A program made the translations under genes and the position numbers. Positions 16,408-61,355 of a stretch of DNA of 64,000 nt are shown piece by piece. The stretch lies in NCBI GenBank assembly GCA_026417415.1, contig JAOADG010000008.1:515432-579431 (forward strand), given 5' to 3'. The notes below the pieces were generated by a model. The model ran no database searches. It saw only the letters and a list, made by a program, of their open reading frames with translations, and had not been told where the DNA came from. Position 1 is the stretch's first letter. Each line of letters begins with the position of its first letter. The stretch comes from a bacterium (lineage in GTDB: Bacteria > Electryoneota > JAOADG01).

Positions 16408-16481
16408 GGGCGATTAGCTCAGTTGGCTAGAGCATCTGCTTTACACGCAGGGGGTCGCTGGTTCAAGTCCGGCATCGCCCA
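16408..16481 (+). tRNA. tRNA-Val (anticodon TAC)
   Basis: GGGCGAT acceptor paired with ATCGCCC; anticodon loop TTTACAC; GTTCAAGTC T-loop; no encoded CCA. Confidence 0.9.
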
Positions 16482-16531
16482 CAAAATTTGGAATATCTAT
16501 TTCCAATGTTATCTTTCTTTTTAAAGAAGAA

Positions 16532-16605
<74 letters not shown>

Positions 16606-16629
16606 CCAATAATAAGAAAATATTAATTA

Positions 16630-16702
16630 GCCGCTTTAGCTCAGGTGGTAGAGCAATGGACTGAAAATCCATGTGTCCCCAGTTCGAGTCTGGGAGGCGG
16701 CA
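16630..16702 (+). tRNA. tRNA-Phe (anticodon GAA)
   Basis: GCCGCTT/AGGCGGC acceptor stem, anticodon loop CTGAAAA, AGTTCGAGT T-loop. Confidence 0.9.
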
Positions 16703-16732
16703 CTTGTTAAATTCATACATTGAGGATTAAAA

Positions 16733-45490: not shown

Positions 45491-46642
45491 CTATCGAATA
45501 GGTTCGCGTACTTTCAAACCTTTCCACTTCAAAGGAATTCGAAATATAACCCAAGGTGAAACAAATATCATGTATAACCAAAGATAAGGAATAAAGAATG
45601 GTACAGCGATAATATCCTTCCATTTTTTTACCAAATGTAAAGTACTCATTGAAAACATCATTTCTGAACCAATAATCATTAATAGTGCTGTTAACGCAAT
45701 ACTATCTTTGGTGATAATGTACAAAATAGGAAGAAGTAAATGGAGGGAAAAAATAAGTACGACAAATAGTTTTGTAATGTTATTTAGACGCCAAACCCCC
45801 ATTGACCAACGAATTTTCATGTTGGGCAATTTTTTAATCGGTTCTGGATCGGTGGTTGGGATTGCTTGTAAATCAAAATGGTAACGAATGGCTTTGTTAT
45901 GATACTTTTTTAGTACACCTTGGGATAATCTTACGTCTTCGCAAATTGAAAACCCTAATTTCGGAAATCCACCGATTGAAAAATAAGCACTTTTACGAAT
46001 AGCAAAGTTATTGGCTAGACCAGCACCACCTAAACCTAAACTATTTACTGCAAAGCCCAATCCCTGTATAAAAAGCATATCTGAATTTTGTACTCGATCG
46101 AACAATGAATTGGTTTCGTTTTCTCTTACCAATAATGCTGGACCACTTACTATCTGAGTATCTTGTTTGAAGTAAGATACGGTTCGTCTTACCCAAGTGG
46201 GTGGCACAAAACAATCGGCACCTGTTGTAAGCACAATTTCATTGGTACAAGCCAACATCCCACAGTGCCAGGGTGCAGCTTTACCTAATAGCCCTTCAAT
46301 GTTGTCTTGAATGTGTAATACTTTTCTGTGAATTGGGTCGTGCGCAACAAAGTCATCAAAGATTTGGGCAGTTCCATCAGTAGAAGCGTGATTTACTAAA
46401 ATAAATTCAATTTTTTCTTTTGGATAATCTAATTTTTCTAAATAAGATAAAGTTTTAGGTAAAATTCTTTCTTCGTTACGTGCACAGATTACAATACTTA
46501 CATTAGGAAATTGTTCATTTCTTTTAAGTTTACGGATTAGTATCAATACACTGAAAACCAACAACAAGCAAGCGTATAAAATACTTAAAATGAAAAAAAG
46601 GTCAATTATAGTTTCCATTACTAAGGGATAATTAATTTCCAT
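45491..46642 (-). CDS. Membrane-anchored family 2 glycosyltransferase (ceramide-glucosyltransferase / HpnI-like architecture)
   Basis: N-terminal TM; VSIVICARNEE, TGADC (DxD), ICEDVRLS (ED) and KIRWSMGVW (Q/RxxRW-like); C-terminal TM helices. Confidence 0.7.
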   Translation of the reverse strand: MEINYPLVMETIIDLFFILSILYACLLLVFSVLILIRKLKRNEQFPNVSIVICARNEERILPKTLSYLEKLDYPKEKIEFILVNHASTDGTAQIFDDFVAHDPIHRKVLHIQDNIEGLLGKAAPWHCGMLACTNEIVLTTGADCFVPPTWVRRTVSYFKQDTQIVSGPALLVRENETNSLFDRVQNSDMLFIQGLGFAVNSLGLGGAGLANNFAIRKSAYFSIGGFPKLGFSICEDVRLSQGVLKKYHNKAIRYHFDLQAIPTTDPEPIKKLPNMKIRWSMGVWRLNNITKLFVVLIFSLHLLLPILYIITKDSIALTALLMIIGSEMMFSMSTLHLVKKWKDIIAVPFFIPYLWLYMIFVSPWVIFRIPLKWKGLKVREPIR

Positions 46643-47253
46643 TGATATTGTACAACATGTTCAAGAAAAACTTTTAACATTCTTAAAAAAGTTGATGGAA
46701 ATGGACTTCCGTCATGCATTAAAACAATATCGCCTTTGCGTAATTTTTGAAATAGGTCATCTACAACTTTTTCTACGTTTGTATTTTTACGGTAATCGCC
46801 TAAATACCAACTCATCCAAACGGGCTCTAAACCATTATTTAATAAATTTTTCCAGATAAATAAAGGTGGTATCCCGTAAGGCGCTCTAAATCTTTTCACA
46901 GGTTTTCCTACTATATCTTCAACACGTTTTTTCATATCTAACCATTCTGCTAAAGTTTGTTTGGGATTACGCAAAAGTTGTTTGCGATGATGCCAACCAT
47001 GTAAACCGATTTCATGATGATGAAGATGCAAATCATTTATTAGTTTTTTGTTATGAATAGTACGTTCCATAAGCACAAAGAAGGTTGCACGAACACCGTA
47101 AATGTTTAATAGTTCTAATGCTTGTTGGGTAGTTCTTTCAACTGGACCATCATCCAAAGTAAGCCAAAGTTCTTTTGCGTTTGTAGAAAATGTCATTTGT
47201 AATTTTGGAAGACATCGAAAAATTGAACTATATCTTGCAGGAAATTCACTCAT
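46621..47253 (-). CDS. Polysaccharide deacetylase (NodB homology domain, CE4)
   Basis: LTLDDGP (motif 1 with catalytic Asp) and HGWHH (His metal ligands); overlaps both neighbours. Confidence 0.75.
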   Translation of the reverse strand: MSEFPARYSSIFRCLPKLQMTFSTNAKELWLTLDDGPVERTTQQALELLNIYGVRATFFVLMERTIHNKKLINDLHLHHHEIGLHGWHHRKQLLRNPKQTLAEWLDMKKRVEDIVGKPVKRFRAPYGIPPLFIWKNLLNNGLEPVWMSWYLGDYRKNTNVEKVVDDLFQKLRKGDIVLMHDGSPFPSTFLRMLKVFLEHVVQYQWKLIIP

Positions 47254-48356
47254 TAAAAAACAGCAAATCCTCGTTTTTCAGAAATGTTAGGACGAGGTGC
47301 AATTGCATAGAATAGTAATAGCCAAGGTTGAAGAGGCGACCAAATTAAAAAGGAACGAAATGTAAAGATAGGGAAAAGTTTTCTTAACTTTTTTAAGTTA
47401 ATGAAGTCCATAATGTACTTTGCAATGTAGATCCAAATAGGAAAGTATGGTTCAGGAAAAAAGAATAATGCAACTACATTGGAAAGTAATCCCAACAGCG
47501 AGAAAGCTAAAATACTTTGTATAATTTGAATTTTTAGTGGATAGGTTGTTGCATCACGAAACCATCTTCTACGTGCTGCTGCTGTTTGTAAAAAGGTTTT
47601 GGCTAATGAAGTAAAAACAGCAGATTGTTTTTGTATTACAGCACGCATGGGTTTATTACTTGCATATTGATTTTGTAAAATTCTTCCATCTTCACCAGTA
47701 CCATCAGTACCAACTTTAGCCCAAAATTCATTTTGAATACATTCGGAAGGAATGAGCATATTTGCAGTAGATGCTGTGATGGGTTTACTTCGAGCAATAA
47801 GCCCCATAACCGCATATGTTACCGAGGCTTGATCTAAAGATAAAATTTCTTTCCACCAATTCGGAGCATGCCAAATTTCAAAAACAGGTCCAACAGCACC
47901 ACCTTTTCCAGCTTCATGAACTAAAGTTTCCAGCCATTCAGGTGAAGCTCGACAATCTGCATCTACAAATACTACACTACCGTGACGTATGTTTTGTGTT
48001 GCAATATGCATTGCATACAGTTTCCCATGTAATCCTGTTGGGACATTGTAGATGTGAAGGAGTTTAATACGTAATTGCTTCTCAAATTCTTTTACAACAG
48101 CAACAGTGTTATCCGTTGAACGATCATTAACCACAATTACTTCAAATTGTTCTTTAGGTAAGGTTTGATTGGTCAAATCTGATAGTATTCCACGAATAGT
48201 TTCACCTTCATTATGAGCTGGTATTAAAACATGAAGTGGGAATGGAGCAGGACACTTAACAATGACATTTGAACTCCACCCTAAAAAGGAGATGATTGAA
48301 ATGATGTAATAAATGACTAAAGACAAAAAGAGTACAATGGTCCAAATCTCTATCAT
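47253..48356 (-). CDS. Membrane-anchored family 2 glycosyltransferase (processive-type motifs)
   Basis: LHVLIPAHNEGETI, FVDADC, GEDGRI and QTAAARRRW (QxxRW); N- and C-terminal TM helices. Confidence 0.7.
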   Translation of the reverse strand: MIEIWTIVLFLSLVIYYIISIISFLGWSSNVIVKCPAPFPLHVLIPAHNEGETIRGILSDLTNQTLPKEQFEVIVVNDRSTDNTVAVVKEFEKQLRIKLLHIYNVPTGLHGKLYAMHIATQNIRHGSVVFVDADCRASPEWLETLVHEAGKGGAVGPVFEIWHAPNWWKEILSLDQASVTYAVMGLIARSKPITASTANMLIPSECIQNEFWAKVGTDGTGEDGRILQNQYASNKPMRAVIQKQSAVFTSLAKTFLQTAAARRRWFRDATTYPLKIQIIQSILAFSLLGLLSNVVALFFFPEPYFPIWIYIAKYIMDFINLKKLRKLFPIFTFRSFLIWSPLQPWLLLFYAIAPRPNISEKRGFAVF

Positions 48357-48360
48357 TGAA

Positions 48361-49296
48361 CTATTTATTTTTTAATTTTTTACTTAAACTGATCCAAAAG
48401 GGTAAACCTAAAATTGCAGGAAAAACAGAATTAATCAAAAAAAGTGATATTGTGACCTGTGGTAATAAATCTTTTGATTGGAATAAAAGATTTCCTAAGA
48501 CCATCCCTACGAGTTCAGATGTACCAAGGTTACCGGGAGTAATCGCAATAAAACTCCGAATAAGTTGTAACGCACCGAAAACAAACAATCCTGTAATGAA
48601 ACCTCCATTCCATCCAATGGATTGTAAACTAAATACGAACTGACAAGCAACGAAACCATATTGAACAAATCCAAGCAAGACACCTATTCTTAAAATATTA
48701 TGAGGTATCAAAGTAAACCCTTCGTATAGTTGATGAATGAAAGAATTTTCCTTAATTCCGATTTTTTTATTTCTCGTTTTGTGAAAAATCCATTCATATG
48801 TTAAAAAGTAACCCAGACAGATCACAAGCGATAACACCACACTAATCCAACCAAACGCTTTACTAAATAAAATTCCGAGGGATAGAATTCCAAACAAATG
48901 CATAGGCGGCCAATACATTAATCGGTCAATCAATGAAATGCCTAGAGCTTTACCAGTTGTTCCTGGCATTAATAAAACCAACGCGGCATCACCAAGTCGT
49001 CCAGGAGTCAACGATCCAGCAGTAAAAGCACCCAAAGCAGCTTTCACAACATCAATCAATCGCAAATTGGTAGAATTTGTTCGTAAAAGAATCCAACTCC
49101 GAAAAACTTGTGAACTTAGGGAACCACACATAAAAAGGGTAATCATGAACCATGTTGAAAATGAAAAATTTCGTATTGCTTTTACAAGTCCGTTCCAACC
49201 AATCTCATTGATAACTAATACTACTAATCCAATTGCTAAAGGGATGCTAAATAACCAAAGTCGTTCTTGTAACCATTTAATCCTATTCATTTCCAT
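48361..49296 (-). CDS. Flippase-like polytopic membrane protein (UPF0104 / lysyl-PG synthase TM-domain-like)
   Basis: About 8 TM helices with no soluble domain. The likely start is ATG 49296, or ATG 49290, which overlaps the upstream stop as ATGA. Confidence 0.5.
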   Translation of the reverse strand: MEMNRIKWLQERLWLFSIPLAIGLVVLVINEIGWNGLVKAIRNFSFSTWFMITLFMCGSLSSQVFRSWILLRTNSTNLRLIDVVKAALGAFTAGSLTPGRLGDAALVLLMPGTTGKALGISLIDRLMYWPPMHLFGILSLGILFSKAFGWISVVLSLVICLGYFLTYEWIFHKTRNKKIGIKENSFIHQLYEGFTLIPHNILRIGVLLGFVQYGFVACQFVFSLQSIGWNGGFITGLFVFGALQLIRSFIAITPGNLGTSELVGMVLGNLLFQSKDLLPQVTISLFLINSVFPAILGLPFWISLSKKLKNK

Positions 49297-50399
49297 TCTC
49301 TTGTTGGATGTAAAGTGTTGATCAAAACTAAACCTAACCAAATCGGAAACACAAAAAGAAAAGCCATCGAATACCAAATTTGATACTTATGTGTAGTGTA
49401 ATGAATGACAGATTGAATACATAGCTCTATTAAAGTGAGATACAATAGAAGTATTACTAAAAAAAATGAAAACTTGAAAAAGTGCCAAATACCTATCCCA
49501 TATAACAGTATTCCCATTGGGAAGAAAAAAAATCCTGGAATAACCAATATTCCAAAAATTTTCCAAAACAATGGATAATCCGAAGCAACAGAATAGTGTC
49601 TTTTTCTAGCTTTCCAATATTTTTCAGTGTCTCTATCAAAAATATCAATGGTCGTAAGTGGGAAACATTTAGAAATGATTTTTCCTTGTAATTTAGATAA
49701 TGAATGTAATAATAAATCATCATCGCCAGATATCTTATTTAAATGATTAACAAAACCACCTACCTTGTAAAACGCATCTTTTTTATAGCAAAAACCAGCA
49801 CCAACAGCCGATAGCGGATGATCAAGTTTAATAGCAGCACTCATTAAAAAACTTTGAACTAACGTTTCAAAATTCCTTAAATAGAAAAATACACCACGGC
49901 CACCAATAAGACGATAGGATGGAACAATGGCTAACCAATCATTATTGAATCCATAAAACATTTCAATTAACCATCTTCTATGTGGACGAGAATCCGCATC
50001 TAAAGTAACAATCCAATCTTTATGGGATTGCGATATGGCAAGCGAAAGAGCATATTTTTTAGGATTAAGATGAGTATCTGGTAGATGGTTGACTTCTAAA
50101 TATTTGAATTTGGGTTGATGTGCTCGTACAAAACTTTTAAGTATTTCACCAGTTTGATCTGTTGAACGATCATTTACTAAACAGATAGAGAGATCATCTG
50201 AATACCATTCTAAATGTTCAAGAGAAGATAAAAGAGAGGGAAGAATTGTTTCTTCATTATGACAAGATACAATCACTTCAATAGAAGGGCAGGTTTTATG
50301 GGTAAAGATTTGCTTTTTATGAAAACCAAAAAGTAACCAAGACAAACCTAATAGGGTAAATGTAAGGAAAGAAAGAAAAATGATTTCATAAATATCCAT
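49287..50399 (-). CDS. Membrane-anchored family 2 glycosyltransferase
   Basis: IEVIVSCHNEE, VTLDADS (DxD) and SGDDDLL (ED-like); C-terminal TM helices. Confidence 0.65.
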   Translation of the reverse strand: MDIYEIIFLSFLTFTLLGLSWLLFGFHKKQIFTHKTCPSIEVIVSCHNEETILPSLLSSLEHLEWYSDDLSICLVNDRSTDQTGEILKSFVRAHQPKFKYLEVNHLPDTHLNPKKYALSLAISQSHKDWIVTLDADSRPHRRWLIEMFYGFNNDWLAIVPSYRLIGGRGVFFYLRNFETLVQSFLMSAAIKLDHPLSAVGAGFCYKKDAFYKVGGFVNHLNKISGDDDLLLHSLSKLQGKIISKCFPLTTIDIFDRDTEKYWKARKRHYSVASDYPLFWKIFGILVIPGFFFFPMGILLYGIGIWHFFKFSFFLVILLLYLTLIELCIQSVIHYTTHKYQIWYSMAFLFVFPIWLGLVLINTLHPTREWK

Positions 50400-50407
50400 A
50401 AAGAGTT

Positions 50408-50438
50408 TTCAAAATTCGAACAGTGTCCGAATTTTGAA
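50408..50438 (-). promoter_or_regulatory. 11-bp perfect inverted repeat (AT-rich hairpin) in the 52-nt gap between sdhB and the glycosyltransferase operon
   Basis: TTCAAAATTCG-aacagtgtc-CGAATTTTGAA; no strong U-run follows, so it is an attenuator, operator or weak terminator candidate. Confidence 0.3.
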
Positions 50439-50451
50439 CGCAATTACGAGT

Positions 50452-51228
50452 TCAAAATGCTTCTTCATTGTGAAAAAGTTTAGCGATGATATAATCCCGA
50501 TTCATCCGACCAATGTTAACAAATTGAATTTCTTTAGGACATGCAGCTTCACATTCTAAATGATTGCTACAGTTTCCGAATCCTAATTCATCCATTTTTT
50601 CAATCATATGAATAGCACGTCGATATCTCTCCGGTTGACCTTGAGGTAATTGTCCCAAGTGATTAATCTTAGCAGAAACAAAAAGCATTGCAGAACTATT
50701 CGGACAAGCAGCAACACATGCACCACAACCGATACACGCTGCTGCATCCATTGCTAAATCAGCATTTTTCTTTGGAACTAAAATGGAAGATGCTTCAGGT
50801 GCAGAACCAGTTTTAACAGAAATATAACCACCTGCTTGGATGATTTGATCAAATGCACTTCTATCAACTACTAAATCTTTGATGATTGGAAATGCTTTTG
50901 CACGAAAAGGTTCAATCACCAGAGTATCCCCATCGCGAAAATGTCTCATATGTAATTGGCAAAGTGTTGTTCCTTTCAAATGACCATGAGCTTGTCCATT
51001 TACAACACAACCACAAGCACCACAAATTCCTTCCCTGCAATCATGATCAAATGCAATTGGTTCAATACCATTTAATGCTAATTGATCGTTTACAACATCC
51101 AACATCTCTAAAAAAGACATTTCAGTAGAAATATTTGTCGCTTCATAAGTTTCAAAACGACCTGGTGTAGCAGCATTAGGTTGACGCCATACTCGGAGTG
51201 TCAAATGAATTGTATTCGATTCGCTCAT
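50452..51228 (-). CDS. sdhB: Succinate dehydrogenase / fumarate reductase iron-sulfur subunit
   Basis: [10 protein letters not shown] (2Fe-2S), [12 protein letters not shown] (4Fe-4S) and CxxxxxC...CP (3Fe-4S). Confidence 0.9.
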
Positions 51229-53141
51229 TATTTGTAACTCCGTTGTGAAGGTTTTACATATTCAAAGATTAATGGTTCTTTATGAAAATTGGGTTTTAAA
51301 TTAGGACCATTATATTCCCACACAGAAACATGACTGTAATTTTCATCGTCTCGTTTGGCTTCACCTTCTTCTGTTTGCGATTCTTCACGAAAATGTCCAC
51401 CACAAGATTCTCGACGTTCTAAAGCATCCAATGTTAGTAATTCTGCAAAATCAAGAAAATCAGCAACTCGTTTGGCTTTTTCTAAAGTTTGGTTGAAATC
51501 ATTGCTAACCCCAGTAACTTTTACATTTTTCCAAAATTCATCGCGAATTTCAGGAATTTTTTCAAGTGCGTATTTTAGCCCTTTTTCGTTTCTTGACATT
51601 CCAACATAATCCCACATAATTTGACCAAGTTGACGATGAAAATCATCTACTGTACGATTTCCTTGAATAGACATTAATCGCTGGATAGTTTGTTCAATTT
51701 CTTTTTCAGCATCACTAAATGCAAGATGAGTTTCATCAATTTTTGAAAACGTGTTGGATGCAAAGTAGTGACCAATAGTGTAGGGGATAATAAAATAGCC
51801 GTCCGCGAGACCTTGCATGAGTGCGCTCGCACCCAAACGATTGGCGCCGTGATCACTAAAATTGGCTTCACCTAAAACAAATAAACCGGGCAAAGTGCTC
51901 ATTAAATTATAGTCCACCCAAATACCACCCATTGTATAATGGATGGCTGGATAGATCATCATGGGTTCTTCATAAGGATTAACACCAGTAATTTTTTCAT
52001 ACATATCAAATAGATTGCCATATCTCTCTTCAATCACTTTTTTCCCTAACCGTTTGATTGCATCACTAAAATCTAAATACACTGCAAGCTTCGTAGTACC
52101 TACCCCTAATCCTTTATCACAGACCTCTTTTGCATTTCTTGAAGCAACATCACGTGGAACTAAGTTGCCAAAACTTGGATACTTTTCTTCTAAAAAATAA
52201 TATCGTTCATCTTCTGGGATTTCGCTCGGTTTACGTGTATCTCCTTGTTTACGCGGAACCCAGACTCTTCCATCGTTTCGTAAACTTTCACTCATCAGTG
52301 TTAATTTAGATTGGTAATCGCCATGAACAGGAATACATGTCGGATGAATTTGTGTGAAACAAGGATTGGCAAAAGCAGCACCGCGTTTGTATGCTGCCCA
52401 AGCAGCAGACACATTGCAATTCATTGCATTAGTAGAAAGGAAATAAGCGTTACCATACCCGCCTGTGCAAAGTAAAACAGCATGTGCTGAATACGATTCG
52501 AATTTTCCATTGATTAGATTTCGTACCACAATTCCGCGTGCTTTCCCATCAATAACCACAATATCCACAAGTTCTCTTCTGGTAAACAAACTAACCGATC
52601 CATTTGCTATTTCTTTCATCATAGCACTATAAGCACCAAGCAATAATTGTTGTCCAGTTTGACCACGTGCATAAAAAGTTCTCGATACTTGTGCACCTCC
52701 AAAACTTCGATTTTCTAACAGACCACCATATTCTCTAGCAAAAGGAACACCCTGAGCAACGCACTGATCAATAATATGATTGCTTATTTCTGCAAGTCGG
52801 TAAACGTTTGCTTCTCGAGCACGATAATCACCACCTTTAACAGTGTCATAAAACAATCTCCAAATTGAATCTCCATCATTGGGGTAGTTTTTTGCAGCAT
52901 TAATTCCTCCTTGAGCAGCAATGCTATGTGCTCTTCGTGGTGTGTCGTGTAAAGTAAATACTTTGACTTGATACCCAAGTTCTGATAATGATGCTGCCGC
53001 AGATGAACCTGCTAAACCAGTACCAACAACGATGATTTGATATTTTCGTTTGTTGGCTGGATTGACTAATTTCATTTCAAAACGATGGTTAGACCATTTG
53101 GTGGTGATATGACCCGAAGGAACTTTTGAATCAAGGTTCAT
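51228..53141 (-). CDS. sdhA: Succinate dehydrogenase / fumarate reductase flavoprotein subunit
   Basis: [17 protein letters not shown]-binding fold, the [13 protein letters not shown] covalent-FAD His region, and 637 aa. Confidence 0.9.
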
Positions 53142-53150
53142 ATTGAATCC

Positions 53151-53819
53151 TTATTTCGCTAATGTTACTGCGATAAATGGAATTGTCGCAAAACCAATTG
53201 CAAACAGGACACCTAAAACTTTGGCAAGTTTTTGTAACATTTTTGTATATTGAGTGTGAGTAACACCAATGGATTGAAATAAACTCCAAAACCCGTGGCT
53301 AATGTGCACTCCTAATACAATTACAGCAAAAATATAAAAAGAAAGTCGTGCAAAGTTTTTAAAAGAGTCGGATACATGCATGGCAAGCTGCCAGCCATCC
53401 CAACCTGACATATATTTGGTAATTGTGTAATCAAGCAAATGGATAATAAGAAATAGAAGTAAGATAAATCCTGTATAAGGCATTGTTTTACTAGCGAAAG
53501 TTTGACCACCACGGCTGTTTGAAACTGAATATTTTACATTTCTTGCTTTCCAATTTGAGAGCGTTAAAATGATTCCTAAAAAGATATGAGAAAGAAAAAT
53601 TAATGCTAAAATGAGTTCAGCGAAATAAATCAATGGTCCTGTGCCAGCAAGAAAATCTACGAATGCAGCAAATGTTTCATGACCAAAAATTAATGTAGAA
53701 TTACCACTTAAATGAAATACTAAAAAACCAAGCAACAAAAGCCCAGAAATGGCCATGTAAAACTTTTTACCCACTGAGGTTTTGAAAATTTCTATTAGTA
53801 AACTCATTTTAACTCCCAT
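53151..53819 (-). CDS. sdhC: Succinate dehydrogenase cytochrome b subunit (single-subunit, five-helix b558 type)
   Basis: 222 aa with five TM helices and conserved His residues in helices 1, 2, 4 and 5; it precedes sdhA-sdhB. Confidence 0.75.
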   Translation of the reverse strand: MGVKMSLLIEIFKTSVGKKFYMAISGLLLLGFLVFHLSGNSTLIFGHETFAAFVDFLAGTGPLIYFAELILALIFLSHIFLGIILTLSNWKARNVKYSVSNSRGGQTFASKTMPYTGFILLLFLIIHLLDYTITKYMSGWDGWQLAMHVSDSFKNFARLSFYIFAVIVLGVHISHGFWSLFQSIGVTHTQYTKMLQKLAKVLGVLFAIGFATIPFIAVTLAK

Positions 53820-53857: not shown

Positions 53858-54364
53858 TCAAAAGAACATTGATGACGTTCTTTTTTGAAGAAGTTTTACT
53901 AATTCCTCATAGGTGGTTTCTATGGATTCGCTAATGATTCTTGTGTCGGTCAAAATGGGCATAAAATTGGTATCCCCTAACCAACGTGGAACAATGTGTT
54001 GGTGTAAATGTTCAGTGATGCCTGCACCTGCTACCATTCCTAAATTCATTCCGATGTTGAACCCTTGAGGATGGCAAAATTCTGTTAAAATTTGGCAACT
54101 TAAACGGATAAAATGGTTAATTTCAAGTAGTTCATCGTTTGTAATCTTTGATAAATCTGCAGTATGTTGAAATGGGACAACCATTAAATGTCCATTTGTA
54201 TAAGGGAATTTGTTCATCATAACAAAACTAAACTTCCCTCTGGCCAAAATGAGATTCACCTTGTCGCTTTTCTCGTTTTGAATTTTGCAAAACAAGCATG
54301 GAGCATTTTCTTCATGTGCAGAACGAATGTAGGCCATTCGCCAAGGTGCCCATAACTGTTTCAC
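53858..54364 (-). CDS. HIT-family nucleotide hydrolase/transferase
   Basis: HLHQHIVPR histidine triad (HxHxHxx) and CLFCKI near the N-terminus. Confidence 0.75.
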   Translation of the reverse strand: MKQLWAPWRMAYIRSAHEENAPCLFCKIQNEKSDKVNLILARGKFSFVMMNKFPYTNGHLMVVPFQHTADLSKITNDELLEINHFIRLSCQILTEFCHPQGFNIGMNLGMVAGAGITEHLHQHIVPRWLGDTNFMPILTDTRIISESIETTYEELVKLLQKRTSSMFF

Positions 54365-54396: not shown

Positions 54397-56484
54397 TTAT
54401 TCTTCTTCTACTACTTGTCCAGAACGTTTGGCTTGATATTGTTCTTCAAGTTTCTTTTGAATTTCTGGTGGTACTTCTTCATAATGTGAAAACTTTACAC
54501 GGAAAAAACCGCGACCGCCAGTCATAGAGCGTAAAACCATAGAATATTTCATGATCTCTGCTTGTGGTATTTTGGCACGTATTTGTTGATAATGTCCAAT
54601 TGAATCCATACCGATAATTTTACCTCGTCGTGAAGAAAGATCACCCATAACGTCGCCCATATAGGCCTCTGGAACTTTTACTTCCAAGTCGAATATAGGT
54701 TCTAAAACGACAGGTTTTGCTTTAAGTGCAGCCTCGCGGAATCCTTTGCTACCAGCCAATTTGAACGCAGTTTCGGAAGAATCTACTGGATGCTCTTTTC
54801 CATCAAATAGCGTAGCTTTAACACCAATAACAGGATAACCAGCAATTACCCCTTTTTTCATTGCTTCCGCGATACCTTTTTCTACTGCAGGAATAAACTT
54901 TCCTCCCACGACACCGCCGACGATTGCATCCACGAATTCTAATGGTTCACCTTCGCGATCTTTAGGTTCAATTCGTATCACAGCGATTGCAAATTGGCCT
55001 CGTCCACCCGTTTGTTTTTTATGTTTTCCTTCTGCTTCTGCTGTAGTTCTAATAGCTTCACGATATGGTATTTTGGGTTCATTTGTTTCTAATTCTATAC
55101 CAACTTTTTCTTTTAAGGTCGCAAGACAAACTGCCAAATGAATATCTCCTTGACCACTAATTATCGTTTGTCCCAATTCAGTGTCTTGATGATAGAGAAA
55201 AGTCGGGTCTTCAAAATGAACTTGTGATAATCCACTAGAAAGTTTGTCTTCATCACCTTTAGTTTTGCATTCAATTGCTAAGTGATAAACAGGCGGTGGA
55301 AACTCAATTCTCTTTAACTGGACCAAATCGTTCGGGTCACATAAAGTGTCACCAGTAATAGTTTCTTTTAGTTTAATAGTTCCAGCCAATTCACCGACCG
55401 AAACAGAATCTACCAATTTGCGATTTTTACCATTGAGTAAAAATAAAGAATTGATTTTTTCAACTTTTCCAGTACGGGCATTAACCAGTTCATCACCTGT
55501 TTTAACAGTTCCAGCCCATACACGAAATACTGAAATATCTCCTACATGCGTTTCATTCATGGATTTAAATACTTGTAGTAGTGCAGGTGCGTTTAGTTCT
55601 TGTTTTCGTTCTACACCACTTTCACTCAATACTGGACCTGTTTCAATTGGAGAGGGACAAAATTCAATCAATAAATCCAGTAAATCATCAATACCCACTG
55701 TTCGTTTGGCAGAACCACATAATATCGGGTGTACTTTTCCTTTTAGGATACCCAAGCGAATTCCTTTATCCAATTCTTCGTCCGTGAGCTCACCTGATTC
55801 AAAATACTTTTCAATGAGTTCATCATCAGCTTCAGCAGCATATTCTATTAATTCTTTTCTTAAAGTTTCTACTTTTTCTTGATATTCTGCGGGAATATCT
55901 TTAATGGTAGCTTTTCCACTGGTATCATTCCATACCAACAATTTCTTTTGAACTATATCAATGATTTGATGAAAAGTTTCCTTACCTACACCAATAGGAT
56001 ACTGCAATGCAACACACCCATTTCCATAACTTTCACGAATTTGATGATAAACCTTATCAAAATCAGCATTTTCGCGATCTAAACAATTCACGAAAAAACA
56101 AAATCCAATTCCTCGTTCTTTCGCAGCTTCAACTGCGTGATCCGTACCTACTTCCACACCACCGACACCATGTACCACCGTTAAGACCACATCTGCAGCA
56201 CGCATTGCACACCTTACTTCGCCAATAAAATCGGCAAAGCCGGGTGTATCCAAAAGATTAATCCGATGTTTATGCCATTCAGTTGTTAGTAGTGTAGTTT
56301 GGATGGATATTTTGCGTTCAATTTCTTCTTTGTGAAAGTCAGATTGAGTGTTACCATCGTCCACCGAACCTTGACGATTAATAGCACCCGAAGTAAAAAG
56401 GATGGATTCAACTAATGTAGTTTTACCTGAACCACTGTGGCCAGCAAGAACGATATTCCGAATATGATCTGCAGAAAAAGACAA
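54397..56484 (-). CDS. Elongation factor G paralogue with non-canonical GTPase motifs
   Basis: Five-domain EF-G architecture (695 aa) that aligns to EF-G throughout. G1 is AGHSGSGKTT, switch II is DTPGFADF (Phe in place of the catalytic His), and G4 is VNCLD (Cys in place of the Lys of NKxD). Confidence 0.8.
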   Translation of the reverse strand: MSFSADHIRNIVLAGHSGSGKTTLVESILFTSGAINRQGSVDDGNTQSDFHKEEIERKISIQTTLLTTEWHKHRINLLDTPGFADFIGEVRCAMRAADVVLTVVHGVGGVEVGTDHAVEAAKERGIGFCFFVNCLDRENADFDKVYHQIRESYGNGCVALQYPIGVGKETFHQIIDIVQKKLLVWNDTSGKATIKDIPAEYQEKVETLRKELIEYAAEADDELIEKYFESGELTDEELDKGIRLGILKGKVHPILCGSAKRTVGIDDLLDLLIEFCPSPIETGPVLSESGVERKQELNAPALLQVFKSMNETHVGDISVFRVWAGTVKTGDELVNARTGKVEKINSLFLLNGKNRKLVDSVSVGELAGTIKLKETITGDTLCDPNDLVQLKRIEFPPPVYHLAIECKTKGDEDKLSSGLSQVHFEDPTFLYHQDTELGQTIISGQGDIHLAVCLATLKEKVGIELETNEPKIPYREAIRTTAEAEGKHKKQTGGRGQFAIAVIRIEPKDREGEPLEFVDAIVGGVVGGKFIPAVEKGIAEAMKKGVIAGYPVIGVKATLFDGKEHPVDSSETAFKLAGSKGFREAALKAKPVVLEPIFDLEVKVPEAYMGDVMGDLSSRRGKIIGMDSIGHYQQIRAKIPQAEIMKYSMVLRSMTGGRGFFRVKFSHYEEVPPEIQKKLEEQYQAKRSGQVVEEE

Positions 56485-56678
56485 GTTGCCTCCTATTATT
56501 GAAAGGAATACATTGAAAATATAGGGAACCTACTTCCGATAGAATGTAATGTTCCAATGAAAAGAATTTTCGAATTGAAAGAAAATTTAATGAAGAAATT
56601 ACTTTAGGAAATAAGGTTTCTAAAATCACAAACAATTCATCCTAAGCGTACCCAATATAAACAACTTCAGGGTTGTAT

Positions 56679-56727: not shown

Positions 56728-58644
56728 TTATTCACCTAAGGTATAAATATTTTTCCGCAGTTTAATTTCATTGAAAAGTTGCAATTTGATTTCATTAAAT
56801 GAAAAACTACCTAAATCTCCTTTTCCTAATTTTCTAATGGCAACTTTATTCGTTTCTGCTTCTCGACCACCAACAACAAACAAATAGGGTACTTTTTTAT
56901 TTTGATTATCTCGAATTCGGTAATTTAAAGATTCTTCACGTGCATCTAATTTTACACGAATACCCATCTTGAAAAGCTCTGAATAGATTGATTTAGCATA
57001 ATCAATATGTTTTTCTGAAGATATGGGTATCACAACAACTTGTACAGGGGATAACCAAGTCGGAAAAGCCCCTCCATAATGTTCAATTAATATCCCAATA
57101 AACCTTTCTAAACTTCCCAAAATAGCACGATGGATCATAACAGGACGATGTTTTTGTCCATCTTTTCCTGTATATTCCATATCAAATCGTTCAGGCATGG
57201 AAAAATCCACTTGAATCGTTCCACATTGCCAAGTTCTTCGCAATGCATCTCGGATATGAAAATCTATTTTAGGACCATAGAATGCGCCTTCACCATGATT
57301 GACCTTGTATTTCACTCCTTTTTGGTTAAGAACATTCGCAAGTGCTAGTTCAGCTTTTTCCCACATTTCGTCAGACCCGATGGATTTCATAGGTCTAGTG
57401 GACAGTTCAATGTCATAATTTGTAAAACCAAGTCCATGATAGATTTCTTCTAATAATTTCATTACCCCACTAACTTCTGTTTCCAACTGTTCAGGCGTAC
57501 AGTAAATGTGTGCATCATCTTGGGTAAAACTTCTTACACGGAACAAACCCGATAGAACTCCAGATTTTTCATGGCGATGTACATGACCCAATTCAGCCAT
57601 TCGTATAGGTAAATCGCGATAACTCCACATAGAAGAACGGTAAACCAAAGTTCCACCAGGACAATTCATTGGTTTAACAGCAAAATCTTTGTCATCTATT
57701 TTTGTGAAGTACATATTCTCACGATAATGTTCCCAATGTCCGGATTGATGCCATAAAGTATCACTTAAAATCATTGGTGTCTTAATTTCTTCATATCCAA
57801 ATTCACGATGTTTTTCGCGCCAGAAATCAACTATTGCATTGTATAAAATGGTTCCATTGGGATGCCAAAAGGGAAATCCTAACCCTTCGATATGAAAAGA
57901 AAAAAGGTCAAGTTCTTTACCAAGGTTTCTATGATCACGTTTTTTGGCTTCTTCTACTATTTTTAAGTAGTCATCTAAATCTTCTTTTCGCCAAAATGCA
58001 GTTCCGTAAAGTCGTTGTAACATTTCACGTTTTTCATCACCGCGCCAATAAGCACCAGCCACACTTAGAATTTTAAATGCAGGAACTAAACCCGTATTCG
58101 GTAAATGAGGTCCTCTACAAAGATCCACAAATTCGCCTTGTGAATAAAAACTAAATATCTCGCTGTCTAGAGTTTCTACTAATTCGTTTTTGTATTTTGC
58201 GCGTTGTTTTGAAAGAATTTCTAATGCCCCTTGTTTGTTTGTTTCGATTCGTTGGATAATTAACTTTTCTTGAATGATTTTTTGCATTTCTTGTTCAATT
58301 AGTGGAAAATCATCAGGTGAGAAAATGTGCTCTAAGTCGAAATCGTAATAGAAGCCATCCTGTATTACAGGACCTATTGCAAATTCAACATTTGGAAATA
58401 AACGATTCACTGCTTGTGCCATAATGTGAGCAGTTGTATGTCGTAAAATTTCTAAACCTTCCTCAGAGTTTGAATATACTAACTCAAATTCACCTTCTTC
58501 GCGAATAGGTGTTTGTAAATCGTAAAACGTATTTCCATTTCTAACACCTATTACATCCTTAATGTCTAAATCAGAAAGAGCGTTTCTGACTGTTTCATTG
58601 ATTGAAAATTGAATACGATTTCCATTTTTCAAAATAACAGGCAT
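56728..58644 (-). CDS. thrS: Threonine--tRNA ligase
   Basis: N-terminal TGS domain, class II motifs 2 and 3 (HRAILGSLERFIGILIEHY), 638 aa. Confidence 0.9.
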   Translation of the reverse strand: MPVILKNGNRIQFSINETVRNALSDLDIKDVIGVRNGNTFYDLQTPIREEGEFELVYSNSEEGLEILRHTTAHIMAQAVNRLFPNVEFAIGPVIQDGFYYDFDLEHIFSPDDFPLIEQEMQKIIQEKLIIQRIETNKQGALEILSKQRAKYKNELVETLDSEIFSFYSQGEFVDLCRGPHLPNTGLVPAFKILSVAGAYWRGDEKREMLQRLYGTAFWRKEDLDDYLKIVEEAKKRDHRNLGKELDLFSFHIEGLGFPFWHPNGTILYNAIVDFWREKHREFGYEEIKTPMILSDTLWHQSGHWEHYRENMYFTKIDDKDFAVKPMNCPGGTLVYRSSMWSYRDLPIRMAELGHVHRHEKSGVLSGLFRVRSFTQDDAHIYCTPEQLETEVSGVMKLLEEIYHGLGFTNYDIELSTRPMKSIGSDEMWEKAELALANVLNQKGVKYKVNHGEGAFYGPKIDFHIRDALRRTWQCGTIQVDFSMPERFDMEYTGKDGQKHRPVMIHRAILGSLERFIGILIEHYGGAFPTWLSPVQVVVIPISSEKHIDYAKSIYSELFKMGIRVKLDAREESLNYRIRDNQNKKVPYLFVVGGREAETNKVAIRKLGKGDLGSFSFNEIKLQLFNEIKLRKNIYTLGE

Positions 58645-58721: not shown

Positions 58722-61355
58722 CTACCGTAAGTAAAGAGCTTTTCGTGTTGTTGTGAAACCACTTCTTGAAGTGATATGGAATAGATAAATTCCACTGCTG
58801 AAATTCGTCAAATTGACCTCAATTTTATATTCACCACTTGAAGAAATGTGATACGTATTAGAAGATACCAATCTTCCTGTAATGTCAAAAATGGATAAAT
58901 GAATATCGTCTTTATTAGGTGTCTGTACTGTAAAACTTGCTGTAGAATTAAAGGGATTTGGGTATATGTCACTAACTAGACATGTGGTTGGGATAGTGAT
59001 GTAGGGTTCTTTTGTTGATGAAGGAGCGCTGAAATAGTTTGAAATAGAAGTTAGCAGTTCCATTAAACCGACTGTTTGTGCAGTGCTTGAAATAGCTTCT
59101 AAGGCAACACTAAATAACACTAGTTTTCCATTTCCAATCTGTCTATAAACTCCACACGCTTCACTGGTACTACCTAAAGTATATGCAACTCCAGTCCCAG
59201 GAGAAGGGGTCATTGTACTCTGAGAGAAACGACCATTGCCTGCACCTTGACTCCCCGTCAAATAAAGACGCCCGACACCAAAAGGTGCATTTGTGACAGG
59301 TTCTATAGTCCATTGTAATGCAGAAGTTTGTAAAACCTCAGCTCCAACGATTTGAGACATAAAATTTTGTGCTTGTAAATCTTCTGGTAAATTTTGGGAA
59401 GAAATAAGGATTTTACCACCATTGTTTAGATAGTTTGTAATCATCATTTGATCGTATGCATCAATAGTGCTCGTTGCATTTCCAGTGTACCAAATAACCC
59501 ATTGAAATTGTTCCATAAATCCCTGTGGTAAAGATCCTGTAGAGTACATATCAAAATATTCAAATGTACGATTCATATTAGAAAGAGCATTACGATAGAA
59601 AGATTCAAAATTTGAACCTTCATCATCATCTACTAAAAGAACTTCGGGCCATCCAACGAAATAGGTGAAATGAGTTTCGTAAGCATAATCGCCCGGCTGA
59701 GCAAAAATTTGTACCCGAAATGTCACATTTCTTTGCGGTGAATTTGCGGCAACAAATAATGAAAAGGGTGTATTTTCATTATTCCAACTAGAACCTGCAT
59801 TCAAGGTTCCAACAATTCTTGTTGAAGGGTTTACTGTAACATTAGCATCTAAAGGTGTCACAGTAATCCAACAACTGTCAGCATCTGCATATCCAGCTTC
59901 AGCGTGGATATAAAGCGAGAGTAAACCATTTTCACCCGGCTCTAATCTACCATCCTCATCGCCTTGATCTTCAATTATGTAATTCGTAAGTGTAATGTTA
60001 GGTACATTTAACATTTCCATAGCTGCAAGTGCATTAATGCGTCCTGCACCTAATAAACCTACATAATTGGGATTGATTGCATCTATATTGTCTGCACTAC
60101 TTAAAAGAACATGAACGACCTCTTGATTAGATGCAGATAAAATTCTTGATTTGATTAATGCAGCAAGCCCTGCTGCAAATGGGCAAGCCATGGAAGTACC
60201 TGACATATAGGTATAACTATTGGTAGGAACCGTTGACATGATATTAGATCCGGGAGCGCAAATATCTACCCAAGTGCCATAATTGGAAAATGATGATTTT
60301 TGGTCATTTGAACTTGTTGAAGCCACTGCTACAACATTATTTAAAGCAGAGGGGTAGTGTAAAGTGGATACATTATCATTTCCAGCAGCTGCTAAAATCA
60401 CGCAATTTCTTGCCCAAGCATAATTTATCACTTGTTGTTCATTTGGACCTGCAGAATTGCCACCCCAAGATAAACTAATAACATCGGCAAGTTTATTTGC
60501 GGCAAACACAATTCCATCATAACCATCGGTAATATATTGTTGTGCACCTGCACGTACTGCCATAATCTTACAGTTATAACCTAATGATGCGATTCCAGTA
60601 GCATTGTTGGTTTTTGCACTTGCGATACCCGCGCAATGTGTGCCATGTGATGAATTAGTCGGATTGGGACTTGGATCACCATCATTATCTACAACATCTG
60701 CACCATGAAAATTATCTACGAACCCATCCATATCATCGTCAATGTTGTTTCGCTCATTGGTTTCAATAACTCCGTTTCCATTTAGATCTTCACCAGGATT
60801 CACCCATAAATTAGGAGATAAATCAGGATGTGTTAATTGTACGCCTGTATCCACAATCGCAACGATAACCGATGGATCCCCTGTTGAATAATCATGAGCT
60901 AAATTTGAATTTACACGGGTTAAACCCCATTGCTGATTAAATCGCGGATCATTATACTGTAAATCAATGGTATAAATGTACTTGGGTTGTGCAAAAAGGA
61001 CTGACTTGCATTTTTCAAATTCGTATTGGACTTGTAAAACGTCTAAAGTAGAAGGAAAAGAAAATTCCCACCAAGTTCTCAATTCTATTCCACCAGCTTC
61101 TTCAGGAGGTAAAGCAATCGGGTAGCATTGTTCAGCCTCTTGAATGTTCAAGGAATGGATTAAAAATTGGATTTCTTGATCTGTGGAAGTTAAGTTTTTA
61201 AGTGTGTACCATTCTTCTGGAAGTCCACGGAATTGAACCAGTATTTTGCCCGTATAAAAATCAGCGCCAAATAGTCCACTAGTTAAGAAAACAATAGACA
61301 ATAACGAAAAGAAAATTCTCAGTCTGCAAGTCATTGATTCACCTCTTTTGTTCAA
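58722..61355 (-). CDS. Secreted subtilisin-like serine protease (S8) with a T9SS C-terminal sorting domain
   Basis: Asp/His/Ser triad motifs VAIVDTGV, HGTHCAGIAS and GTSMACPFAAGLAAL. The C-terminus reads DIYPNPFNSTASF...IFDITGRLV...SGIYLFHITS. Confidence 0.85.
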   Translation of the reverse strand: MNKRGESMTCRLRIFFSLLSIVFLTSGLFGADFYTGKILVQFRGLPEEWYTLKNLTSTDQEIQFLIHSLNIQEAEQCYPIALPPEEAGGIELRTWWEFSFPSTLDVLQVQYEFEKCKSVLFAQPKYIYTIDLQYNDPRFNQQWGLTRVNSNLAHDYSTGDPSVIVAIVDTGVQLTHPDLSPNLWVNPGEDLNGNGVIETNERNNIDDDMDGFVDNFHGADVVDNDGDPSPNPTNSSHGTHCAGIASAKTNNATGIASLGYNCKIMAVRAGAQQYITDGYDGIVFAANKLADVISLSWGGNSAGPNEQQVINYAWARNCVILAAAGNDNVSTLHYPSALNNVVAVASTSSNDQKSSFSNYGTWVDICAPGSNIMSTVPTNSYTYMSGTSMACPFAAGLAALIKSRILSASNQEVVHVLLSSADNIDAINPNYVGLLGAGRINALAAMEMLNVPNITLTNYIIEDQGDEDGRLEPGENGLLSLYIHAEAGYADADSCWITVTPLDANVTVNPSTRIVGTLNAGSSWNNENTPFSLFVAANSPQRNVTFRVQIFAQPGDYAYETHFTYFVGWPEVLLVDDDEGSNFESFYRNALSNMNRTFEYFDMYSTGSLPQGFMEQFQWVIWYTGNATSTIDAYDQMMITNYLNNGGKILISSQNLPEDLQAQNFMSQIVGAEVLQTSALQWTIEPVTNAPFGVGRLYLTGSQGAGNGRFSQSTMTPSPGTGVAYTLGSTSEACGVYRQIGNGKLVLFSVALEAISSTAQTVGLMELLTSISNYFSAPSSTKEPYITIPTTCLVSDIYPNPFNSTASFTVQTPNKDDIHLSIFDITGRLVSSNTYHISSSGEYKIEVNLTNFSSGIYLFHITSRSGFTTTRKALYLR

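Follow-up and report, generated by a model that had tools for sequence, protein, structure and literature searches.

An elongation factor G paralogue without the switch II histidine in an Electryoneota genome belongs to the described EFG II subfamily and lies beside a conserved HIT-family gene

Gene content of the locus and reality of the motif changes

A stretch of 64,000 nucleotides from an Electryoneota bacterium (GenBank assembly GCA_026417415.1, contig JAOADG010000008.1, positions 515,432 to 579,431; hereafter the window, with a G+C content of about 36%) carries on its reverse strand a gene for a homologue of elongation factor G (EF-G), with thrS upstream and a HIT-family gene and sdhCAB downstream (Table 1). 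An original prediction, made from the DNA letters alone, described the product as an EF-G paralogue that has lost the catalytic histidine of switch II and the lysine of the G4 motif. The analysis reported here places the protein firmly in the EFG II subfamily, which has been described before, and shows that the traits that looked odd are defining, previously published traits of this subfamily. A minor fresh point is a conserved partnership between EFG II genes and a neighbouring HIT-family gene.

The gene is a single intact open reading frame (ORF) of 695 codons, and its product is identical to a protein annotated as 'elongation factor G [bacterium]' (P0001) in an NCBI metagenome-assembled genome. 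Pfam domains follow one another in the order GTP_EFTU, EF-G domain II, domain III, domain IV, and C-terminal domain, and residues 4–679 align with residues 8–687 of Thermus thermophilus EF-G (E value of 7e-163, 41.7% identity), which agrees with the end-to-end homology originally proposed. The alignment places Phe83 at the position of the catalytic histidine (H87 in T. thermophilus numbering) and Cys134 at that of the G4 lysine (K138), while N137 and D140 are kept as Asn133 and Asp136. Both losses were thus correctly read from the sequence, as was the intactness of the G1 and G5 motifs (AGHSGSGKTTL and GSAK). The retained nucleotide-binding residues comprise Lys21 and Thr22 of the P-loop, Asp79, Gly82, Asn133, Asp136, and Ser258-Ala259 of G5.

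The substitutions are not assembly artefacts, because the codon of Phe83 (TTT, 56236–56238) is two base changes away from a histidine codon, that of Cys134 (TGT, 56083–56085) is three base changes away from a lysine codon, and the same residues occur in an independent relative. This relative (L081), which was sequenced in an independent run and shares 84% protein identity and 76% DNA identity, also has DTPGFADF and NCLD, and NCLD recurs in a further relative at 71% identity (P0053). Sequencing error and frameshift were accordingly rejected as explanations.

Table 1. Features of the locus, with positions in the window
Feature	Position	Strand	Basis or remark
EFG II-type EF-G paralogue (fusA2-like), 695 aa, TTG start	54397–56484	-	ORF and family-profile match
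Start codon TTG	56482–56484	-	read from sequence
Shine-Dalgarno sequence AGGAGG, 4 nt ahead of TTG	56489–56494	-	read directly from sequence
G1 P-loop AGHSGSGKTTL; EFG II states Gly15 and Leu24; canonical Ile and Asp replaced by Ser17 and Gly18	56413–56445	-	PMC3150367; PMC4342817
G2/switch I RKISI (canonical RGITI); Mg-binding Thr replaced by Ser60	56302–56316	-	alignment; PMC3150367
G3/switch II DTPGFADF; Phe83 at the catalytic His position	56227–56250	-	alignment
G4 NCLD; Cys134 at the Lys position; Asn133 and Asp136 kept	56077–56088	-	alignment
G5 GSAK	55705–55716	-	alignment
Domain IV loop I GKHKKQTGGRGQF, including EFG II Lys-Lys 489–490; near-invariant among homologues	54991–55026	-	alignment, homologue conservation
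Domain IV loop II HPVDSSE; His565 corresponds to T. thermophilus H573; invariant among homologues	54772–54792	-	alignment, homologue conservation
HIT-family gene (Rv2613c/Ap4A-phosphorylase-like), 32 nt downstream of the EF-G paralogue	53858–54364	-	conserved partner gene
sdhC	53151–53819	-	
sdhA	51228–53141	-	
sdhB	50452–51228	-	
Terminator-like hairpin after sdhB; possible end of the transcription unit	50408–50438	-	consensus match only
thrS, upstream and co-directional, with a 243-nt AT-rich spacer	56728–58644	-	
Subtilisin-like protease, 877 aa, with a C-terminal type IX secretion system (T9SS) sorting domain (Por_Secre_tail)	58722–61355	-	
Family-2 glycosyltransferases, polysaccharide deacetylase, and an unannotated 338-aa ORF, directly downstream of sdhB	45491–50399	-	
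tRNA cluster Val(TAC), Asp(GTC), Phe(GAA)	16408–16703	+	Rfam

Assignment to the EFG II subfamily

The EFG II subfamily was defined by Margus, Remm and Tenson (Margus et al., 2011; PMC3150367) and corresponds to the EFGII of Atkinson (2015; PMC4342817). Its diagnostic positions comprise six at which EFG I and EFG II carry different residues and seven that are constrained in EFG II only (PMC3150367). When these positions were mapped onto the protein through the alignment with T. thermophilus EF-G, the EFG II residue was found at 11 of the 13. Among the six differing positions (T. thermophilus numbering), position 19 is Gly rather than Ala (Gly15), position 28 is Leu rather than Thr (Leu24), position 64 has Ser for Thr within a relaxed RGITI motif (Ser60 in RKISI), and positions 360 (Gly) and 379 (Lys/Arg) are occupied by Gly352 and Lys371. 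The sixth, position 316, is Thr in EFG II and Ile in EFG I, and the Ser308 found here is hydrophilic like Thr but off the consensus. Six of the seven EFG II-constrained positions (D224, V258, L272, K498, K499, E543, and G633) match exactly, as Asp220, Leu268, Lys489, Lys490, Glu535, and Gly625, and the remaining one has Ile254 in place of Val; both deviations are conservative. A relaxed G2 motif in place of the translational-GTPase signature RGITI is itself an EFG II trait (Margus et al., 2011; PMC3150367), and the replacement of the P-loop Asp by Gly, which is also seen here, has been noted for EFGII (Atkinson, 2015; PMC4342817).

The assignment is supported by similarity searches and phylogeny. 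When the G domain alone was compared with the PDB, the three best matches were the three studied EFG II proteins, from Bacteroides thetaiotaomicron (7UVP, 130 bits), Mycobacterium smegmatis (9K0Z, 101 bits), and T. thermophilus (1WDT, 101 bits), and canonical T. thermophilus EF-G scored 95 bits. A neighbour-joining tree with 50 bootstraps was built from 151 sequences, namely the protein and 150 representatives of clusters formed at 50% identity. Five canonical-type representatives (AHIDAGKT, RGITI, DTPGH) grouped as an exclusive clade in every one of the 50 replicates, and the protein fell outside it. Its own motifs (GHSGSGKT, RKISI, DTPGF, and NCLD) differ from the canonical EFG I set of AHIDAGKT, RGITI, DxPGH, and NKxD throughout.

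Against curated profile hidden Markov models, the protein scored 886.5 bits over residues 3–687 with the NCBIfam model NF009381 (PRK12740.1-5, 'elongation factor G' subfamily; cut-off 583) and 655.1 bits with the canonical EF-G equivalog TIGR00484, just below the cut-off of 659.4. The scores lay below the cut-offs of the Bacteroides-type EF-G2 model NF058620 (689 bits in two stretches, cut-off 1000), of NF009377 ('Elongation factor G-like protein EF-G2'; 566.5 bits, cut-off 890), and of the tetracycline ribosomal protection model NF012153 (301 bits, cut-off 775). Membership in these three families was rejected on the basis of the cut-offs together with the absence of an insertion in domain IV, which is discussed below. 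At full length, the protein matches canonical EF-G with 547 bits, B. thetaiotaomicron EF-G2 with 531 bits, and M. smegmatis EF-G2 with 414 bits.

The Pfam order and the predicted structure both give the five-domain EF-G fold (G with G', II, III, IV, and V). An AlphaFold2 model computed from 95 family members (pLDDT of 92.5, pTM of 0.85) resembles ribosome-bound EF-G with TM-scores of 0.88–0.93, B. thetaiotaomicron EF-G2 (8DMF) with 0.90, M. smegmatis EF-G2 (9K0Z) with 0.89, and T. thermophilus EF-G-2 (1WDT) with 0.84. The thrS, HIT, and sdhCAB genes read on either side place the gene outside a str operon. Among the readings originally offered, that of a divergent EFG II-type paralogue encoded apart from the str operon is therefore the one on which the diagnostic residues, the tree, the G-domain matches, and the flanking genes agree.

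As a separate observation, one cluster representative of 1040 residues (P0212) carries a canonical-type EF-G (AHIDAGKT, RGITI, DTPGH) at residues 348–1034, and it has either an N-terminal extension of about 347 residues or a fusion introduced by gene calling.

Conservation of the substituted positions

The two substitutions were followed in 119 full-length closest homologues (48–100% identity), in 80 species-representative genomes (FCB-group lineages, Actinomycetota, Bacillota, Gemmatimonadota, and Acidobacteriota), and in the 150 cluster representatives. Histidine was not found at the switch II position in any of the closest homologues, which have Tyr (72), Phe (46), or Ser (1), nor in any of the species genomes (Phe 39, Tyr 37, Ala 2, Ser 1, Gly 1). 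It occurs in eight of the 150 representatives, five of which are the canonical EFG I proteins, leaving three among about 145 EFG II-like sequences. The studied EFG II proteins read DCPGS (B. thetaiotaomicron EF-G2), DTPGY (M. smegmatis EF-G2), and DAPGY (T. thermophilus EF-G-2), and none has the histidine. The three EFG II-like representatives with His (P0125, P0227, and P0253) have a non-canonical P-loop and G2, and the residue may be either retained or the result of reversion; P0125 (DCPGHTDF) is the nearest neighbour of the small clade of the window protein in the neighbour-joining tree.

The second position of G4 is similarly free. It is Arg in 51 of the 119 close homologues, Lys in 30, Gln in 13, Asn in 8, His in 6, Gly in 4, Cys in 2, Ser in 2, and another residue in the others, so that the lysine is replaced in about 75% of them; among the 150 representatives, 95 have Lys and 55 (37%) have another residue. 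B. thetaiotaomicron EF-G2 also lacks the lysine (NQLD). Cysteine is confined to the nearest relatives (P0002 and P0053), with Ala or Ser in relatives at 70–71% identity.

The original prediction took the changes from His to Phe and from Lys to Cys to set the protein apart, and this part of it does not hold, since the alignments show that such substitutions are normal within a characterised subfamily. Nor do the two changes serve as the signature of a clade, with Phe and Tyr found family-wide and Cys only in the nearest relatives. NKxD was stated to be conserved in EFG II (Margus et al., 2011; PMC3150367); the free replacement of its lysine is a refinement of that statement through deeper sampling and does not define a new kind of protein.

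A relaxed base specificity, which had also been put forward, finds little support in the window protein, since it keeps both Asn133 and Asp136, the residue that specifies guanine. Separately, several relatives (P0068, P0086, P0087, P0096, P0097, P0101, L002, L008, L035, L052, and L057) have Asn in place of the G4 Asp (SKLN, NQMN, NQVN, NAVN). In classical GTPases, this replacement shifts the specificity towards xanthine nucleotides. The motifs of these relatives suggest that some EFG II proteins recognise nucleotides in a degenerate or altered way.

Predicted function and alternative explanations

Across 95 diverse family members, G20, K21, D49, P81, and G82 are invariant, and T22, S60, D79, D85, F86, and N133 are conserved in at least 90%. 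The mean frequency of the top residue is 0.73–0.80 in domains III–V compared with 0.58–0.65 in G, G', and II, and the domain IV loops that form the decoding-centre tip (GKHKKQxGGRGQ and HPVDSSE) are nearly invariant among homologues. The elements with which canonical EF-G positions and activates the hydrolytic water are replaced, with Phe in place of His87, Ser and Gly in place of the P-loop residues Ile21 and Asp22, and Lys in place of the Gly of switch I.

These patterns are consistent with a factor that would bind GTP-Mg through the P-loop Lys and Thr, Ser60 of switch I, and Asp79 and Gly82 of switch II, and would dock on the ribosome in the manner of EF-G, with the canonical tip of domain IV entering the decoding centre. 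Because the elements that activate hydrolysis are replaced, it would most likely translocate slowly or hold the ribosome with little or no GTP hydrolysis. Such activity would offer a mode of low energy cost under carbon or energy limitation, next to a canonical EF-G, as has been shown for Bacteroides EF-G2, and co-expression with the downstream HIT (Ap4A-phosphorylase-like) enzyme, here also with sdhCAB, is probable.

Studies of related and mutated factors lend plausibility to this mechanism. It is reported that the H91A variant of Escherichia coli EF-G has an unchanged affinity for GTP, does not hydrolyse it, and translocates up to 30-fold more slowly, forming a very stable complex with the ribosome in which it stays bound (Cunha et al., 2013; PMC4718068). 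The H88Y change nearly abolishes the GTPase of M. smegmatis EF-G1, and M. smegmatis EF-G2, which carries Tyr98 in place of the histidine, has no ribosome-dependent GTPase (2026 preprint, bioRxiv 10.64898/2026.05.25.727771). B. thetaiotaomicron EF-G2 translocates without GTP hydrolysis, according to a later paper that cites the work (Han et al., 2023, as cited in PMC12775393). Its gene is the most induced on carbon limitation (238-fold), while fusA drops tenfold, and it is required for gut colonisation (Townsend et al., 2020; PMC6989115).

Several points weigh against this mechanism. An insertion of about 26–28 residues in domain IV of the Bacteroidetes-type EF-G2 is absent from the window protein: the alignment with 7UVP breaks at residues ~511–515 with an offset of +28, and a gap of 28 residues relative to a 718-residue homologue (P0248) falls between residues 507 and 508. 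This insertion is reportedly required both to leave the ribosome and to keep the factor free of GTPase activity, and a hydrolysis-deficient factor that lacks it would need another route of release. M. smegmatis EF-G2, moreover, appears not to translocate (bioRxiv 10.64898/2026.05.25.727771), and T. thermophilus EF-G-2, with Tyr at the histidine position, is reported to have intrinsic and ribosome-dependent GTPase and to support poly(Phe) synthesis (Connell et al., 2007, according to later papers), so the loss of the histidine does not by itself prove the loss of GTPase. The severe impairment of GTP hydrolysis in the original prediction thus stands as plausible, given the activity lost in H91A and H88Y, but not as proven. 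Weighing the sequence features and the analogies together, we assign a probability of roughly 0.6 to a GTP-loaded, hydrolysis-poor factor for slow and cheap translocation when energy is limiting, working beside a canonical EF-G.

The activity of the T. thermophilus protein (DAPGY, TKLD), which is also reported to translocate, speaks for a different, GTPase-active auxiliary translocase, in which the aromatic residue fills the place of the histidine, hydrolysis proceeds by another route, and the factor acts as a slower but true isoform. The Gly at residue 19 (T. thermophilus numbering) has been tied to a higher intrinsic GTPase (Margus et al., 2011; PMC3150367), and the acidic patch of G' that contacts L7/L12 is conserved, both of which favour this explanation. 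However, Phe has no hydroxyl group, and the free alternation of Phe and Tyr in the clade (46 and 72 of the close homologues) argues against a catalytic role of the side-chain OH; the P-loop Asp and Ile are lost as well, and H88Y destroys the GTPase in a canonical background. An active enzyme of this kind is therefore rather unlikely.

It is less likely still that the protein is a stress regulator that does not translocate but binds the non-rotated 70S ribosome or the 50S subunit and modulates or protects ribosomes. The original suggestion of a ribosome-binding factor was of this kind, and M. smegmatis EF-G2 provides a precedent, being described as a stress factor without GTPase, recycling activity, or complementation (bioRxiv 10.64898/2026.05.25.727771). 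Yet the decoding-centre loops of domain IV are almost invariant and canonical in sequence here, which disfavours a non-translocating factor, and the protein scores closer to EF-G and B. thetaiotaomicron EF-G2 than to the M. smegmatis protein, with an NF009377 score below the cut-off. The conserved domain IV tip and these overall scores make behaviour like that of M. smegmatis EF-G2 the weaker of these two alternatives.

A drifted canonical translocase that serves as the sole or principal EF-G of the organism is very improbable. The near-threshold score for TIGR00484 would fit it, as would the outcome of a tblastn search with the protein, which found no further gene resembling EF-G or EF-Tu in the window, a search that covered 64 kb of an 898-kb contig only. 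Against it stand the EFG II diagnostic residues, the location outside a str operon, and the distribution of the relatives, which are scattered paralogues of non-essential appearance; and since genomes with a single EF-G gene always have EFG I (Margus et al., 2011; PMC3150367), a canonical EF-G gene is expected elsewhere in the genome. That the gene is an artefact or a pseudogene, or that it encodes a tetracycline ribosomal-protection protein, as the PDB label 'TetQ' of the B. thetaiotaomicron EF-G2 entry 7UVP might suggest, can be practically dismissed in view of the intact ORF, the strong Shine-Dalgarno sequence, the recurrence of the motifs in independent assemblies, and the low score with the tetracycline-protection model.

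The HIT-family partner and the gene neighbourhood

The HIT protein encoded directly downstream is most similar in the PDB to 6AF2 (1e-34) and to the Ap4A phosphorylase Rv2613c of Mycobacterium tuberculosis (3ANO, 6e-34). Of 14 evaluable species loci of the FCB type, 11 have a co-directional HIT gene directly 3' of the EFG II gene. The same arrangement occurs in cultured Caldithrix abyssi DSM 13497, in the 84% relative, and on all four further long contigs, so that with the window counted the pair is present at 18 of 21 evaluable FCB-type loci (the window, L001, L002, L003, L005, L008–L012, L016, L017, L081, L082, and L085–L088). All of the HIT partners have the HxHxHxx triad, and nearly all share an N-terminal PWR motif, in the form WAPWR or one close to it. 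The HIT gene is the sole flanking gene widely common to EFG II loci, and all others vary. Among the loci examined, no HIT neighbour was found beside Bacteroidetes-type or clostridial EFG II genes, and a full-text literature search combining 'histidine triad' and 'fusA2' returned no match.

In three Actinomycetota loci (L014, L015, and L048), a thrS-HIT operon converges on the 3' end of the EFG II gene, and about twelve further loci, from Acidimicrobiia, have thrS within 2–8 kb of EFG II. EFG II, HIT, and thrS genes thus cluster in two distant phyla, with differing orientations.

The EFG II-HIT pair is a lead that stands outside the verdict on the protein itself. One could imagine that FCB-type EFG II and the Rv2613c-like HIT protein form a two-gene module in which the ligand or regulator of EFG II is not simply GTP but perhaps a dinucleoside polyphosphate or stress nucleotide handled by the HIT enzyme, coupling slow, hydrolysis-free translation to alarmone metabolism. 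The thought that the ligand may not be simply GTP comes from the degeneracy of G4, in which Lys is variously replaced and Asp becomes Asn in some relatives. We regard this module as a long shot.

The HIT, sdhC, sdhA, and sdhB genes follow the EFG II gene in this order, as originally described, and lie on the same strand, with spacings of 32 nt (EFG II-HIT), 38 nt (HIT-sdhC), and 9 nt (sdhC-sdhA) and a 1-nt overlap between sdhA and sdhB. Between the EFG II gene and the end of sdhB no terminator-like site was found, and the first hairpin on this strand comes after sdhB. Given the short gaps and the position of this hairpin, an EFG II-HIT-sdhCAB transcript independent of thrS is plausible, and such a transcript may link the factor to fumarate reductase/succinate dehydrogenase. 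The gene order thrS-EFG II-HIT-sdhCAB is kept in the 84% relative and not in more distant ones, and linkage to sdhCAB was therefore rejected as a general feature. An sdhAB-like pair lies 2 kb further downstream at one other locus (L008). A scan for sigma-70 promoters was uninformative for this lineage (30 found, 36.9 expected from shuffled sequences), and an Rfam scan of the window returned three tRNAs only, with no leader ahead of the EFG II start.

Beyond sdhB, the run of glycosyltransferase and deacetylase genes is probably an exopolysaccharide locus. The run is syntenic in the 84% relative, where the counterpart of the 338-aa ORF has the Pfam domain LPG_synthase_TM. On the other side of the EFG II gene, the subtilisin-like protease with its T9SS sorting domain, taken together with the closest relatives of the EF-G paralogue, puts the bacterium in the FCB superphylum, near Calditrichota, KSB1, and Ignavibacteria.

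Significance and comparison with known systems

As one more member, from an uncultured lineage, of a subfamily with a documented lack of the histidine, a divergent G domain, and altered enzymology, the protein in itself matters little. The wide sampling has more to offer: the switch II histidine is essentially never present in EFG II, where Tyr and Phe dominate, and the G4 lysine is freely replaced. Both patterns bear on how EFG II proteins bind nucleotides and on how a hydrolysis-poor factor without the Bacteroides insertion leaves the ribosome. The EFG II-HIT pair, which is also present in the cultured C. abyssi, gives experiments a way into the physiological role of EFG II in bacteria other than Bacteroides and mycobacteria.

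The protein shares with the EFG II subfamily as described by Margus et al. (2011) the relaxed G2, the P-loop Gly, a G domain less conserved than domains III–V, and a gene outside the str operon. It departs from the description in two conservative residues, Ser308 for Thr and Ile254 for Val, and, unlike the conserved NKxD reported there, in a G4 lysine that is replaced in about three quarters of the close homologues in its FCB-type clade.

A close studied counterpart is B. thetaiotaomicron EF-G2 (BT2167; 7UVP, 8DMF), which also comes from the FCB superphylum, provides the best PDB match of the G domain, lacks both the switch II histidine and the G4 lysine, and resembles the predicted fold (TM-score of 0.90 to 8DMF). 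The two differ in G2 (YGYSV in the B. thetaiotaomicron protein, RKISI here), in the residue at the histidine position (Ser and Phe, respectively), and in the domain IV insertion of about 28 residues, which is absent here; the NF058620 score is 689 against a cut-off of 1000. The loci differ as well, those of Bacteroidetes-type EF-G2 being without a HIT neighbour.

T. thermophilus EF-G-2 (1WDT) is likewise an EFG II protein with an aromatic residue (Tyr) at the histidine position, a comparable P-loop (GHAGSGKTTL), and the five-domain fold (TM-score of 0.84). It is shorter (665 aa) and 34% identical, retains the G4 lysine in TKLD, and is reported to be GTPase-active. M. smegmatis EF-G2 (9K0Z, 9K10) resembles the window protein in its subfamily and in DTPGYADF, and it is a factor without ribosome-dependent GTPase; in contrast, its P-loop reads GPSGGGKT, its G5 is degenerate, and its domain IV loops are displaced, and it appears not to translocate and shows no recycling activity.

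The H91A variant of E. coli EF-G is a functional analogue rather than a relative. It has lost the same switch II histidine, binds GTP, and translocates slowly without hydrolysis. It was, however, made by engineering one residue of a canonical EF-G, and it becomes trapped on the ribosome. If the analogy holds, natural EFG II proteins must have found another way to be released.

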